NCBI GenBank assembly: GCA_964016885.1
Contig: OZ024764.1
Coordinates: forward strand, 5,022,001 to 5,086,000
Length of the DNA: 64,000 bases
Direction of reading: 5' to 3'
Source: Eledone cirrhosa
Taxonomy: Eukaryota
The position numbers were made by a program, and so were the translations under genes. The notes under the pieces were generated by a model that did no database searches, was not told where the DNA came from, and saw nothing but the letters and a program-made list of their open reading frames with translations. Shown piece after piece: positions 47,195-60,842 of the stretch. Each line of letters opens with the position of its first letter. Within the stretch, counting starts at the first letter, position 1.

Positions 47195-47224
47195 TACATA
47201 TATTATTGATTACAAGAAATTTAT
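47195..47224 (+). CDS. Putative symmetric micro-exon 7 (class A, 30 nt, phase 2-2; TYIIDYKKF)
   Basis: tttttctcattacAG | tacatatattattgattacaagaaatttat | GTAAGT. Phase 0 has a TGA stop. Confidence 0.75.
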
Positions 47225-48579
47225 GTAAGTGTTACCTTAACAAACTGTCTAACCATTGTTTAATCTGCTCCTCCCTCTACCTCTCCCTTTATACACACAC
47301 ACACATATATACCCCTATATATATATGTATACACACACACACACAAATATATACACATATATACATATATATATACACACATATATATACATATATACAA
47401 GCGAGACACGGCCTGCTGACCAATCTCGTCTTAAGTGGGACAAAACCGTCCAACCCATGCTAGCATGGAAGATGGACTTTAAATGATGATGATATATATA
47501 CACTGACACATATATATACATATATACAAATATATATACGCATATATCTATATATATATATATGAGTTCAAGTCCGCCGAGGTTAACTTTGCCTTTCATC
47601 TTTACGAGGTCGATAAAATAAAGTACCAGTGGTGCACTGGGGTAATCGCTGGCCTTCTGCCAAAAGTAGAAACTATAATTATATATATATAACCAAAGAT
47701 TAATATGGTTCGTTGATTACTCAACGAATACAGTTTTACAATAGATTAGAAGCACTCAACAGTGAAAGTTTTCCTGAACTTTTTAATATTAACAAATGAA
47801 AAATATTCTCATAATCAAAATATATACTTTATTATATATATTTCAAAGGTATATGACATACCTCTACGGTCTTGATTATTCAATTCCAGTATTGGCAGTG
47901 ACTATATATTTATAGGCAAAATGAATAATGAAAGAGTTGCAAGCCGTTAAAACATATCTTTATAAAGCTCTTACATATGTTATATATATATATATCATCA
48001 TCATCAGCAGCGAGACCTGGGCACTGTGTGTAGAAGATCTGTAAAGATTGGAAAGAAATGAGCCTCCATGCTTCAATGGATGTGTCATAGTAATATATGC
48101 AAATGGCAAAACATAAATGTACTGTGAGAGGATTTAGGCATAAGAGGGATTAGATGCAGTGTGCAGGAGTGGGATTGTTTTGGTATAGACATGTGATGTG
48201 TATGAAGGGTGACAGCTGTATAAAAAGGTGCCAAACGCACAAAGTTGACAGAGGCCGTGGAGTGGGCAGGTCTAGGAAGACTTGGGATGAGGTAAGGAAA
48301 GCTGATTTTGTACAATTACACCTAGCTAAGGCAATGACACAGGATGGTGACCTCTGGCGCTATGCACAATTATAGAGGACTACATCCACAATCCACCAGA
48401 CATTTTCCCTACCAACACCCCACACAAGTTCCCAAACCTCACCATAAAGTGGTCCCGCTGCAGCCATGACAAACGTGTCCAGTCCACACTGTACAGTGGT
48501 CTTGTAGGTGTCTTGCCAAAAATCAATATTGGGCCTTAAAACCTTGAGTCCCTTTTGTTCTGTGTATGAACATAAATAA

Positions 48580-49112
48580 TTGTTTCTACTTTTGGCACAA
48601 GGCCAGCAATTATCCAGTGCATTACTGGTACTTTATTTTATCGACCCCGTAAGGATGAAAGGCAAAGTTAACCTCGGCGGGATTTGAACTCAGATCATAC
48701 AGGGAGGTAACTATGCTTCAAAGCATGGCGTCCGACTCTCTACCGATACTGCCAATCCACCGCCTGAACATAAATAAATAATTGGTTCTACTTTAGGCAC
48801 AAGGCCAGCAATTACCTAGTACATTACTGGTACTTTATTTTATCGACTCCGTAAGGATGAAAGGCAAAGTCAACCTCGGAGGGATTTGAACTCAGATCGG
48901 AAAGGGACGTAACTGAATAAATAATTGTTTCTACTATTGGCACAAGGCCAGAAAATTACCCAGTACATTACTGGTACTTTATTTTATCGACCCCGTAAGG
49001 ATGAAAGGCAAAGTTAACCTCGGCGGGATTTGAACTCAGAATGGCAAGGGCCGTAACTCTATGCGTCAAAGCATGGCGTCCGAACCTCTACCGATACTGC
49101 CAATCCACCGCC
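48580..49112 (-). mobile_element. Three tandem antisense Meta-like SINEs
   Basis: Three diverged copies starting at about 48580, 48782 and 48924, each separated by aataaataat. Confidence 0.75.
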
Positions 49113-49194
49113 ACTGAATAAATAATGTAGTATATATATATATATTTGTGTGTGTATCTATTTATATATTTAAGTATATTTTTTGTAATCACAG

Positions 49195-49236
49195 GGCTGA
49201 TACAGAGGAGGGTACCGCTCCAGAAAATAATGACGA
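49195..49236 (+). CDS. Putative symmetric micro-exon 8 (class B, 42 nt, phase 2-2; ADTEEGTAPENND)
   Basis: gtaatcacAG | ggctgatacagagg...aatgacga | GTAAGT. The upstream TTTAAC motif has changed to TTTAAG. Confidence 0.7.
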
Positions 49237-49294
49237 GTAAGTTTTACATACTATCTAACCATTATTCTATCTGTTCCTTCCCGTCTCTCTCTCT

Positions 49295-49331
<37 letters not shown>

Positions 49332-49557
49332 AGGTGTATTACTGGTTGTGTAAAACGGTCCAATAAATTTTTGTTAGCAATATTAAGTCTCCACGCTTTT
49401 GTATATCTCCAATTCCATTTAAGGGAACAGCTAGATGATGTAAAACGGAGTATTTCTATCAAAATGAAAATCCGAAGGCAAGGTAAAATTTCCAATCATT
49501 TTAATCACATCGTGATTAAAATGATTGGAAATCTTACCTTCCTTTGGATTTTCATTT

Positions 49558-49629
<72 letters not shown>

Positions 49630-50324
49630 CTGTCTCTTATAAACCACGTTGGCTATTATGACACTCTCTCCAACATAGAGAGCTATGTTGGCTAATATGA
49701 CTATCTCTCTCTATGTTGGCTATTATGACTCTCTCTCTCTCTCTCTATCCCTCCCTCTCTATGTTGGCTAATATGACTCTCTCTCTCCCTCTCTATGTTG
49801 GCTATTATGACTCTCTCTCTCTCTATGTTGGCTATTATGACTCTCTCTCTCTCTATGTTGGCTATTATGACTCTCTCTCTCTCTATGTTGGCTATTATGT
49901 CTCTCTCTCTCTATCTATGTTGGCTATTATGACTCTCTCTCTCTATTTATGTTGGCTATTATGTCTCTCTCTCTCTATCTATGTTGGCTATTATGTCTCT
50001 CTCTGTTCAAGCTTTATGAAGTTAGTTGAACATCTTCAAAGTCCTCCCATATTCGCCTTGTCTAATATGCGTTCTTGTACCTGATTATTTCCCCCAAATC
50101 TCCTGGGATGTTATAAACCATGATGGCTACCTATCTCACAATTTCTCTCCTGCCCACCCCCTCACACCACCATAGTCTATTCGACCAATCAAACCTCAGC
50201 AACATGTCCCCCACCCATTACCAACCCCAACAAACTCTGCCATTACTACTACTTCTACTTTTCTTCTAGCCCTTACCAGCCCCAACAAACCCTGACATTA
50301 TTACTACTATTGTCCTTCTAGCTA

Positions 50325-57999: not shown

Positions 58000-58032
58000 G
58001 ATATGCTTCACTAATATAAAGAAGAAATTGAT
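58000..58032 (+). CDS. Putative symmetric micro-exon 9 (class A, 33 nt, phase 2-2; ICFTNIKKKL)
   Basis: tttttctcattacAG | gatatgcttcactaatataaagaagaaattgat | GTAAGT. TAA stops occur in phases 0 and 1, so only phase 2 is open. Confidence 0.75.
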
Positions 58033-58883
58033 GTAAGTGTTACCTTAACATACTGTCTAACCATTGTTTAATCTGCTCCTTCCTCTACCTCTCCCTTTAT
58101 ACACACACACACACACATATATACCCCTATATATATATGTATACACACACACAAATATATACACATATATACATATATATATACACACATATATATATAA
58201 TCACATATATATATACATATATACAAGCCAGACACGGCCTGCTGACCAATCTCGCCTTAAGTGGGACAAAACCGTCCAACCCATGCTAGCATGGAAGATG
58301 GACTTTAAATGATGATGATATATACACACTGACACATATATATACATATATATATATACACATATATATACGCATATATTTATATATATATATGAGTTCA
58401 AGTCCGCCGAGGTTAACTTTGCCTTTCATCTTTACGAGGTCGATAAAATAAAGTACCAGTGGTGTACTGGGGTAATCGCTGGCCTTGTGCCAAAAGTAGA
58501 AACTATAATTATATATATATAACCAAAGATTAATATAGTTCGTTGATTACTCAACGAATACAGTTGTACAATAGATTAGAAGAACTCAACAGTGAAAGTT
58601 TTCCTGGACTTTTTAATATTAACAAATGAAAAATATTCTCATAATCAAAATATATACTTTATTATATACATTTCAAAGGTATATGACATACCTCTACGGT
58701 CTTGATTCTTTAATTCCAGTATTGCAGTCACTGCCAATACTGGAATTGAAGAATCAAGACCGTAGCGCTATGTCATAATCATATATTTTGTCTGATGAGG
58801 ACGTACTGAAAAAACAACAATATATATAATATAGTATATATTTTGATTATGCGAATATTTTTCATTTGTTAACATTTTGAATA

Positions 58884-58975
<92 letters not shown>

Positions 58976-59041
58976 AGGTAAAATTAATAATGAAAGAGTT
59001 GCAAGCCTTTAAAACATATCTTTATAAAGCTCTTACATATG

Positions 59042-59094
<53 letters not shown>

Positions 59095-59357
59095 TATATA
59101 TATATATATATATATATATATCATCATTATCATTTTATGTCCGCTTCTCCCTGCTTGCAAGGGTTGGGCTCTCACCACCACTGGCCATGTTTTTCGTGGT
59201 CTTCCTTTTACTGGGATTTTTTAGCACCTCTTTACCCAGCAGTCATCCTCGATGCGCATCACTTGTCCATACCATCTCAGTCTTCTCTCCTGCACACCAC
59301 AACTCATCCCCAGTTTCTCTCTCAACTCATCTATGGTCTTGTCGTTCACGCACATTG

Positions 59358-59393
<36 letters not shown>

Positions 59394-60812
59394 TAATTAC
59401 ATTGACTGATTAATAGCTCTTGTTAATTTTAAAACCATTCTGTTGAGAGCTTAATTCGTTTTGTGATATTTTGCAATTTTGCAATAACACACATACTGAA
59501 TTCATCCGCCAAATCTAAGGGCTGCCCCCCCCCCCCCCCTGTGAAGCCCCACGTGGGTTTTGATAACGGTCAGTCCTTGGCTTGGCACTGAACTAAAAGC
59601 CTGTTGAGAAAGTGACTTCCTTGTTCGATCATCATACCAAAAGCTTAACATTATTTGTCTAAGTAGACAGTACTTGATTTAGGAGTTGCAGAAACCCAAT
59701 ACTGGATATTACCAACCTTCCAGGGGTCCGGGTATAATTTTCCATCATATTTTATTTGTTTTACTCGAATTACTTGGTCGTGTCTATGGCTGTGCGGATA
59801 ATTGTTTAACCATCGTCTCAGTGTGTTTGGCCTTTTAACTTATGTTGTTGCTCTAGTTCACTAGCTTCTATGGAGCGCTTGCCACACATCTCGGAAGTTG
59901 TTTTTCGTTAATTTCCAATAGCAGAAATGCAATTCTCGCTAATTTATATATATATATATATATATATACACGTATAATGGATAACAAAATATCGTTATAG
60001 GTAATCCAGGTAGAAGTTGTGAATACTCTGTATTGTGGTTAGTCTTAGTCTACGGCGTTGTTTGACTCAACAAGAGGTTTCCGTAGGTGGCAAGTATTTG
60101 AGTTCTCTTGAATTTCTATGTAAGTTTATCTTGGAGTAATAATATTGAAAGCGTGAAGAATAACATGGTCAACAGTACAAAAGAAGGTTTTTATTTACAG
60201 TATTAACAATTGTTTCACTGATTAAGTTGTCTAAAAATCGCTGAAAACTTAAAGCTGTGCCACTCAATCTACTATATATATTGGAAGTGGTCGGACGTTG
60301 TATATTTAAGTAAATAAGTAGGTGTAGTCGGATAAACGTCGAAACGGCTTGGTAGAATGCAGCGAAAATTTACACAGTTATGCAGAATTGTAGCAGTTAA
60401 TGATGATATATATGTAAAAGAAATAGGATTTCGCTTCAAGCATATCTTTATACAATATGTATAAATATTTTGTATCTCCAAAGAAATACGGTTTTAGGAA
60501 GCCTTAGCTCTGCAAACCCTGGGGGGCTAACGTCCTCTGGTGATGTCCAGCAGAAGCAAGGGGGACAACCGTCTATGCATTTCAGGCTTAACTGACCATC
60601 GTCTGGACAGTCCCTCCCACTGCTTGCGACTGCTGGCCAGTTAAGCATGAAATGCATAGACGGTTGTCCCCCTTGCTTCTGCTGGACATCACCAGAGGCC
60701 TTGAAACCCTAAGTCCCTTTTGCTCTGTGTATGAACAGAAATAAATAATGTAATATATATATATGTATGTGTGTATCTATTTATATATTTAACTATTTTT
60801 TTCTCATTACAG

Positions 60813-60842
60813 TCCCACAACTACTGCTTCCATGAAATTTAT
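60813..60842 (+). CDS. Putative symmetric micro-exon 10 (class A, 30 nt, phase 2-2; PTTTASMKF)
   Basis: tttttttctcattacAG | tcccacaactactgcttccatgaaatttat | GTAAGT. Phase 1 has a TGA stop, and there are 10/30 mismatches to its direct paralogue, exon 7. Confidence 0.75.

Follow-up and report, generated by a model that had tools for sequence, protein, structure and literature searches.

The stretch of DNA analysed here, referred to as the window, comprises 64,000 nt of the Eledone cirrhosa genome (assembly GCA_964016885.1, 3.0 Gb) at positions 5,022,001-5,086,000 of contig OZ024764.1. All of it (1-64000, + strand) lies inside a 530-kb array of micro-exons that belongs to one gene, G1, and extends from 4,871,418 to 5,399,532. 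Coordinates above one million refer to this contig unless another is named, and smaller ones to the window. Behind the array, G1 continues with a transmembrane exon and the exons of an M13/neprilysin-like ectodomain. Two micro-exons of the window, at 47195-47224 and 60813-60842, differ strongly inside near-identical flanks and are the focal pair of this work. The array precedes the anchor of an M13 protein that lacks its catalytic Glu, and its probable product is a cytoplasmic tail, long and variable. Selection probably diversifies this tail, and gene conversion maintains the similarity of the introns. We put the probability of this reading at about 0.62.

The micro-exon array

The array contains 107 micro-exons of 27-78 nt, all in phase 2-2. 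It is composed of 54 B-type exons (42 nt), 49 A-type exons (27, 30, 33, 36, 57 or 78 nt), and four A-type exons whose acceptor derives from a repeat. Introns have a median length of 6 kb. Every micro-exon length is a multiple of 3, which for three 57-nt exons hinges on the choice of a weaker GTGTTA donor. GTAAGT donors follow 100 of the 107 exons. An exact donor pattern occurs 48 times on the + strand at 4.87-5.40 Mb, three times at 7.23-7.30 Mb, and nowhere else. None of the 56 distinct exons has an in-frame stop in the phase-2 frame, compared with 42 and 22 in the other two frames and a mean of 30.6 (minimum 19) in 2,000 shuffles. Likewise, no pairing of exon ends with exon starts forms a stop codon. 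Because every exon is in phase 2-2 and a multiple of 3, any subset of exons could be joined in frame; the 103 standard exons spliced in genomic order stay open over 1,377 codons.

Within the window there are 11 micro-exons, all on the + strand. The focal exon at 47195-47224 (A type, 30 nt, phase 2-2) encodes TYIIDYKKF, which includes a YxxPhi motif. Its counterpart at 60813-60842, also an A-type exon of 30 nt, encodes PTTTASMKF, in which Ser replaces the motif Tyr, and is one of four similar exons in the array. Further A-type exons encode NTTNFSEKF (5510-5539), TTTFTPLKNI (22677-22709), and ICFTNIKKKL (58000-58032, 33 nt); the last belongs to a class ending in the 11 nt that are seen joined to the transmembrane exon. 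The A-type exon at 44424-44501 is 78 nt long and reads as a 30-nt A exon, 18 nt like a former acceptor, and another 30-nt A exon, and is probably a fusion. The array has five 78-nt exons, all different, and the 18-nt stretch varies among all five, so that exon sequence gained by fusion has turned variable too. The B-type exons of 42 nt are TVPLQSSARGNSD (15419-15460), TDTKESTALEKNE (28857-28898), TDTKESTAPEKND (37048-37089), and ADTEEGTAPENND (49195-49236), followed by the last micro-exon of the window (62624-62665), whose donor is broken (GA for GT) and which is likely skipped.

Each of the six A exons in the window lies in a cassette of ~1.1 kb, composed of the exon and near-identical intron flanks (46767-47903 on the + strand for the first focal exon). 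The 165-nt stretch directly upstream of each A exon (46916-47080) matches its own reverse complement at 86%, and its inverted ends resemble a small non-autonomous transposon. The introns also carry arrays of a 15-nt satellite that is G-rich on the + strand, at 655-2074 and in 12 further arrays of the window. The micro-exon region has 78 such arrays in total, amounting to 91 kb, and these may promote unequal crossing-over.

The M13-like gene and its paralogues

The transmembrane exon of G1 (113 nt, 5,413,283-5,413,395) lies 13.8 kb past the last micro-exon, has the same phase, and reaches a highest 19-residue hydropathy of 2.9. The M13 ectodomain exons extend to about 5,629,520, and a putative non-coding 5' exon, conserved in the paralogue G4, lies at about 4,864,934. 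A single hydrophobic exon thus stands between a micro-exon and the first ectodomain exon, which is the layout of a type II protein, with the topology taken from the family. The exons after the anchor contain ACEDFW, VNAFY (in AVNAFY), HxxxH, and ENIAD (in QENIAD); VNAFY and ENIAD are listed as M13 motifs in the accessible text of PMC2259306. A Pfam scan matched M13_N in one exon (E=0.0099) and Peptidase_M13 in three of six exons tested (E=4e-4, 0.033, and 4e-5 at profile positions 30-49, 98-116, and 175-202), each below the curated cut-off when taken singly. These four single-exon matches are in collinear order, and no M13 match was obtained in 9 of the 13 single exons scanned. The exon phases of G1 chain after boundary adjustment; the boundaries were set by eye, and symmetric exons may be missing. 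At the HExxH position G1 reads GHKIFH in the one assembly, a replacement of the catalytic Glu by Lys. G1 is a member of the M13 family, and one that probably lacks peptidase activity.

Protein searches with single exons (queries of 59, 40, and 42 aa) found no homologues; for the 59-aa query there were 43 candidates, of which none scored. A search of protein representatives gave two matches, both to unrelated repetitive proteins, and an Atlas search gave no match of at least 0.9. With queries this short, these negatives carry little weight. A genome-wide M13 family search listed other M13 loci, on contigs C3 and C24, and did not list G1 or its paralogues.

Inside the M13 gene, a 46-nt satellite spans ~159 kb (5,458,400-5,617,414, of which the two ends were analysed). 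It looks like an amplified 3' splice site with an exon start. The last unit runs into a real 46-nt exon (VPFAMLQKPVFSNI, with a GTAAGT donor), whose true acceptor thus comes after thousands of similar sites. All three paralogues have copies of this satellite at the corresponding position.

Transcript evidence comes from public sequencing runs. Four runs, all of one study, contain an ectodomain exon; none is registered as RNA, which counts neither for nor against expression. In three of them (X1-X3), intron and exon are covered alike at the anchor region, as for DNA. In the fourth (X4), one contig has the 11-base 3' end of an A exon, then the 113-nt transmembrane exon from boundary to boundary, and continues 26 bases into the next M13 exon behind the anchor. 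This contig is a spliced message that joins a micro-exon to the anchor, and it behaves as cDNA in a run not registered as RNA. Its single variant base matches the paralogue G2 and is also seen in the DNA runs; the message may derive from G2 or from another G1 allele. The 11-base end is common to eleven G1 exons, including the one at 58000-58032. The point at which the contig ends is the first difference between the last exons of G1 and G2, which faintly suggests that the last exons of both genes are used. The DNA runs X1 and X3 also carry a variant of the transmembrane exon that is absent from the assembly, with two 3-nt deletions and five base differences, all five nonsynonymous on G1 codons.

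G1 has three paralogues on the same contig, with 6 (G2), 1 (G3), and 9 (G4) micro-exons. G2 (7.155-7.32 Mb, minus strand) is an inverted copy of G1 at a distance of two megabases; it is ~99% identical and retains the HEIFH motif. Four of its micro-exons are in the gene proper and two in a duplicated 5' end, which lies ~52 kb upstream. G3 has GHQIFH at the catalytic motif, and its anchor is preceded by a short exon with the ATG and then a single basic micro-exon. A short tail of this kind is usual for the M13 family. G4 (about 25,041,950) has GHEIFH; in its G3-type start exon the ATG is lost, and there is a new ATG a few bases further along. For G1 and G2, joining the first two micro-exons would create the start codon. 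The catalytic Glu codon has been changed by two different single-base changes, to Lys in G1 and to Gln in G3, and in the HExxH exon the coding sequences of G1 and G2 differ by the change to Lys alone. In G3, an ectodomain exon (36 nt, phase 0-0) has lost its acceptor to a small inverted duplication at 7,516,096-7,516,182. The paralogue series, with 1, 6, 9, and 107 micro-exons and two replacements of the catalytic Glu, shows how such an array arises.

Divergent exons, homogenised introns, and the predicted tail

The part of a type II M13 protein that precedes the anchor is cytoplasmic. Because the micro-exons precede the transmembrane exon of such a protein and encode no hydrophobic stretch (highest 19-residue hydropathy 0.34), the tail likely faces the cytoplasm. 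It could be up to 1,377 residues long and is rich in T, E, N, S, and K. There are 31 distinct A peptides, of which 16 contain Tyr, and in 15 of these the Tyr lies within YxxPhi. The focal exons differ at the codon of the motif Tyr, YKKF versus SMKF, and read as one module with the motif and one without it. The ...KF ends had suggested a tachykinin or a toxin precursor, a reading given up when the transmembrane and M13 exons came to light.

It is possible, though rather unlikely, that under the same selection all exons of this gene are spliced constitutively into one tail of ~1,380 residues, with diversity among alleles and copy numbers and not among isoforms. Strong, near-identical splice sites at almost all exons and the open frame of the 103 standard exons are consistent with this, as is the X4 contig, which enters one exon class for 11 nt without an earlier branch and so suggests a fixed last exon. 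The strict phase symmetry argues otherwise, as do the tolerance of one dead donor, the tolerance of four exons whose repeat-derived acceptors follow another exon at a distance of 107-117 nt, and the paralogues, which work with 1 to 9 exons.

The focal pair, exons 7 and 10 of an initial annotation made from the sequence of the window, indeed lie at 47195-47224 and 60813-60842. Both are flanked by ...CTCATTACAG upstream and GTAAGTGTT downstream, at an offset of 13,618 nt. Direct comparison reproduces the differences described there: 10 of 30 sites, five consecutive codons that differ at position 2 only, and residue changes in 7 of 9 codons (TYIIDYKKF versus PTTTASMKF). The flanks are near-identical, as had been noted, with three substitutions in 46782-47194 (one in the last 165 nt) and none in 47225-47656 (432 nt). 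The alignment of 42948-48925 with 56521-62555 contains 87 mismatches in 5,920 ungapped columns (1.47%), and at this background the probability of at least 10 differences in 30 sites is 1e-11. Windows with at least 6 mismatches per 30 columns are confined to the focal exon, the exon 6/9 pair, and one misalignment at a CA microsatellite (44561-44633); two further aligned blocks, of 1,445 and 1,597 columns, have maxima of 2 and 5. This sliding-window comparison found no equally divergent 30-nt patches scattered through the introns. Exons 6 (44424-44501) and 9 (58000-58032) differ in length, at 78 and 33 nt.

The duplicate that holds the pair exists, but the ~13.6 kb given as its length is the offset; the collinear block is ~8.4 kb (40519-48925, + strand, with its partner at 54210-62555), and its 1.47% substitutions refer to the 5,920 columns aligned in detail. 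The view of the two exons as direct paralogues whose 33% divergence arose since this duplication is not supported, as closer or equally close relatives lie elsewhere in the array. Seven cassettes, that of exon 60813 among them, lie 2 of 546 flank sites from the cassette of exon 47195. Exon 60813 differs by one base from a copy at 5,324,332, 240 kb away, and the 3' half of exon 47195 is common to a DYKKF group. The focal pair are thus not each other's closest exons, and exon lineages sort independently of their flanks.

Across the array, diversity jumps at the exon edges, bearing out the proposal of exon-confined hypervariability. The flanks of A exons differ by 2.1% on average in a patchwork pattern, and four-gamete violations are seen in 150 of 780 pairs of informative sites there, in agreement with the suggested homogenisation of introns by gene conversion. 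The proportions of nonsynonymous (pN) and synonymous (pS) differences were taken from a spanning tree built on intron distance, with 99 edges covering 106 of the 107 exons; under conversion these edges are non-independent. In B exons pN is 4.3% (62.5/1,451 sites), pS is 1.5% (6.5/421), and introns differ by 0.44% (Fisher p=0.0045). This is the pattern of positive selection, and this check on substitution rates among exon copies supports, through the 42-nt class, the diversifying selection put forward earlier.

A exons, the class of the focal pair, have a pN of 7.6%, a pS of 10.2%, and introns at 0.41%, and exon length differs on 17 of 51 edges. Synonymous and nonsynonymous divergence are both ~20 times the intron level, with in-frame indels in addition. 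Since pN>pS is absent in this class (ratio 0.64-0.81; Fisher p=0.24), the case for selection on A exons comes from the conserved reading frame and from divergence above that of the introns. Such a high pS is beyond what selection on point changes could produce by itself, but it can be explained by 3-nt slippage, block swaps, and exon lineages that are older and lie within homogenised flanks. Beyond the array, ectodomain pN is at least equal to pS against all three paralogues. Selection acts gene-wide, with the anchor exon most changed, in a comparison that is approximate since two exon boundaries are off by a few bases. The transmembrane exon has ~27 nonsynonymous versus 2-5 synonymous differences from G3 and G4, in a gapped and approximate alignment. 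Between paralogues this exon is hypervariable while its flanks are ~94% alike.

It is improbable that the array is mostly a by-product of repeat-driven amplification, with most exons skipped or weakly constrained and their differences an old neutral variation amid homogenised introns. A-exon pS about equal to pN would fit such an origin, as would the expanding satellites that fill the locus (the 78 arrays of the 15-mer and the ~159 kb of the 46-mer) and the loss of the catalytic Glu. Under neutral homogenisation, however, the exons would be erased along with their flanks, and the by-product view also does not account for the lack of stops in all 56 distinct exons, the multiples of 3 in all length classes, pN>pS in B exons, or the X4 contig, by which the gene family is spliced.

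The initial annotation had also considered a targeted mutation or replacement mechanism. In such a scheme, a mutator aimed at exons or a replacement from a template (for instance by back-recombination of error-prone cDNA or by somatic conversion) would rewrite the micro-exons. This is not supported by the data and is quite improbable. No templating signal was obtained, as the longest exon matches to non-exon DNA of the locus average 11.8, versus 11.8 in shuffles, and exon changes are not biased towards any one base change such as A>G. At intron divergences of 0.3-1%, synonymous differences in B exons amount to 1 of 197 sites, which is no excess, and between G1 and G2 the ectodomain pS (0.66%) about equals the intron level (0.55%). 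Acceptor-like sequence is kept between the A modules of the fused 57- and 78-nt exons, suggesting that these arose by genomic deletion and not from spliced cDNA. What a mutator would explain is the sharp stop of diversity at exon edges, the block substitutions, the lower share of transitions (41% of exon changes versus 59% in flanks), and a small synonymous excess in the youngest A pairs (introns <0.3%; 2/106 sites versus 33/36,118 in introns, p=0.004). Secreted, hypervariable conotoxin-like peptides of a separate gene, or assembly errors, are hardly credible: the exon-over-intron pattern resembles that of conotoxin genes (in the accessible part of 10.1101/107672) and the focal exon sequences come from the assembly alone, but no signal-peptide exon was found, the tail hydropathy peaks at the low value given above, an A-exon end is spliced to the transmembrane exon, and exon variants recur at distant copies with the frame kept.

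The best reading is that the exon variants are old, kept by selection inside homogenised introns, and likely spliced combinatorially. Several points weigh against it. The X4 splice covers only 11 nt of one exon class and neither focal exon; its variant base fits G2, and the run has no RNA record. Alternative splicing is inferred from phase symmetry alone. The missing pN>pS in A exons, the non-independent tree edges, and the sub-threshold Pfam matches count in the same direction, as does the lack of a G3-type ATG exon in G1 and G2, where none was found. YxxPhi occurs 22 times in the genomic-order translation versus 6.9 in shuffles, an excess inflated by shared ancestry, and most of these motifs end in F. 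The consensus of immunoreceptor tyrosine-based inhibitory and activation motifs (ITIM and ITAM) ends in L, I, or V. A scan of the tail with consensus patterns found only 4 ITIM-like, 3 switch-type (ITSM-like), and 2 ITAM-like sites, in copies that are not independent. Sequons of the form N-x-S/T number 46 in the tail, within the range of shuffles (mean 32.5, maximum 48); they would be more at home on an extracellular segment and call for caution on the topology.

The ancestral state was probably one juxtamembrane micro-exon, still single in G3. That micro-exon and its flanks may have been duplicated into A and B cassettes, which unequal crossing-over then amplified. Conversion would homogenise the flanks and stall at, or be selected against inside, the divergent exons. 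New modules could be built by point changes, 3-nt indels, block swaps, and exon fusions. Exon skipping would likely give tails with varying numbers of tyrosine (YxxPhi) modules and Thr/acidic modules. The product may be a non-catalytic surface binding protein whose tail modules tune trafficking, sorting, or signalling, and the protein may evolve in a conflict, either with pathogen antagonists or in cell-cell recognition. More tentatively, and less likely than not, a neprilysin could have turned into a non-catalytic surface receptor with a tail assembled combinatorially from ~100 positively selected micro-exon modules with or without tyrosine motifs. This would be a Dscam-like diversity generator on the inner side of the membrane, with a role in immunity or in telling self from non-self and with tail repertoires that differ by cell or by individual.

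A membrane protein seldom varies at its cytoplasmic end unless intracellular antagonists attack it. As the locus offers 107 copies, the long-standing question of why toxin-type exons change faster than their introns, through selection and conversion or through hypermutation, becomes directly testable. Elsewhere in the assembly, molluscan haemocyanin genes occur as runs of seven units on contigs C1 (173.74-173.91 Mb) and C26 (21.93-22.02 Mb). Seven units is the octopod pattern.

Comparison with known systems

The initial annotation compared the exons to those of mature conotoxins. In the accessible part of 10.1101/107672, coding exons of conotoxin and snake PLA2 genes diverge faster than the adjacent non-coding DNA, by 2.9-fold on average for mature-toxin exons. 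The analogy stands for the exon being more divergent than the flanking intron. It is not supported for function, since the exons here precede a type II M13 anchor, and the array lacks the signal-pro-mature precursor layout of the conotoxin type. The excess is ~20-fold here, in one gene and in a predicted cytoplasmic domain, whereas the toxins are secreted products of separate genes.

Tetherin/BST2 is a type II protein whose cytosolic tail and transmembrane segment are positively selected by viral antagonists, according to the part of PMC3087111 that is accessible. It is unrelated, with a short tail and no exon array, and the analogy concerns only the possible selective driver.

Among M13 proteins, G1 resembles neprilysin and ECE-1 in its type II layout and in its VNAFY, HExxH-position, and ENIAD motifs. 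As given in the accessible text of PMC2567069, the cytoplasmic tail at the N terminus is the sole difference among ECE-1 isoforms and determines their localisation, and there are four short tails from alternative promoters. In G1, by contrast, the tail is an internal array of up to ~1,380 codons, the tail and anchor are the fastest-changing part, and Lys stands at the catalytic Glu. Lineage-specific expansions of M13 in Drosophila include members without catalytic residues (PMC2259306, in the same accessible text). For octopus glands, the accessible part of PMC12607849 lists neprilysin-like transcripts without gene structure. In the literature covered, which takes in few subscription journals, we found no account of an M13 protein with a tail encoded by a micro-exon array.

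The closest structural parallel is with the micro-exon genes (MEGs) of schistosomes. The accessible portions of PMC4350168 and PMC10526429 describe these as genes of 10-20 exons with a signal peptide and secreted products, which are said to appear restricted to flatworms. Like the MEGs described there, the array has short, symmetric, multiple-of-three exons between long introns, with accelerated evolution and possible in-frame alternative splicing. VAL-6, which has a MEG-like part (a micro-exon block attached to an ordinary protein family; same sources), is a precedent for the arrangement in G1. Unlike MEGs, the array consists of 107 exons from two recently amplified cassettes with ~98% identical flanks and has a transmembrane anchor behind it; no signal exon was found, and no hydrophobic stretch in the tail, that would correspond to the N-terminal signal peptide and secreted product of a MEG. 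Hypervariable, symmetric micro-exon genes have thus been described from schistosomes as encoding secreted proteins, and here such exons occur in a mollusc, in five times the number, at the predicted cytoplasmic end of a membrane protein.

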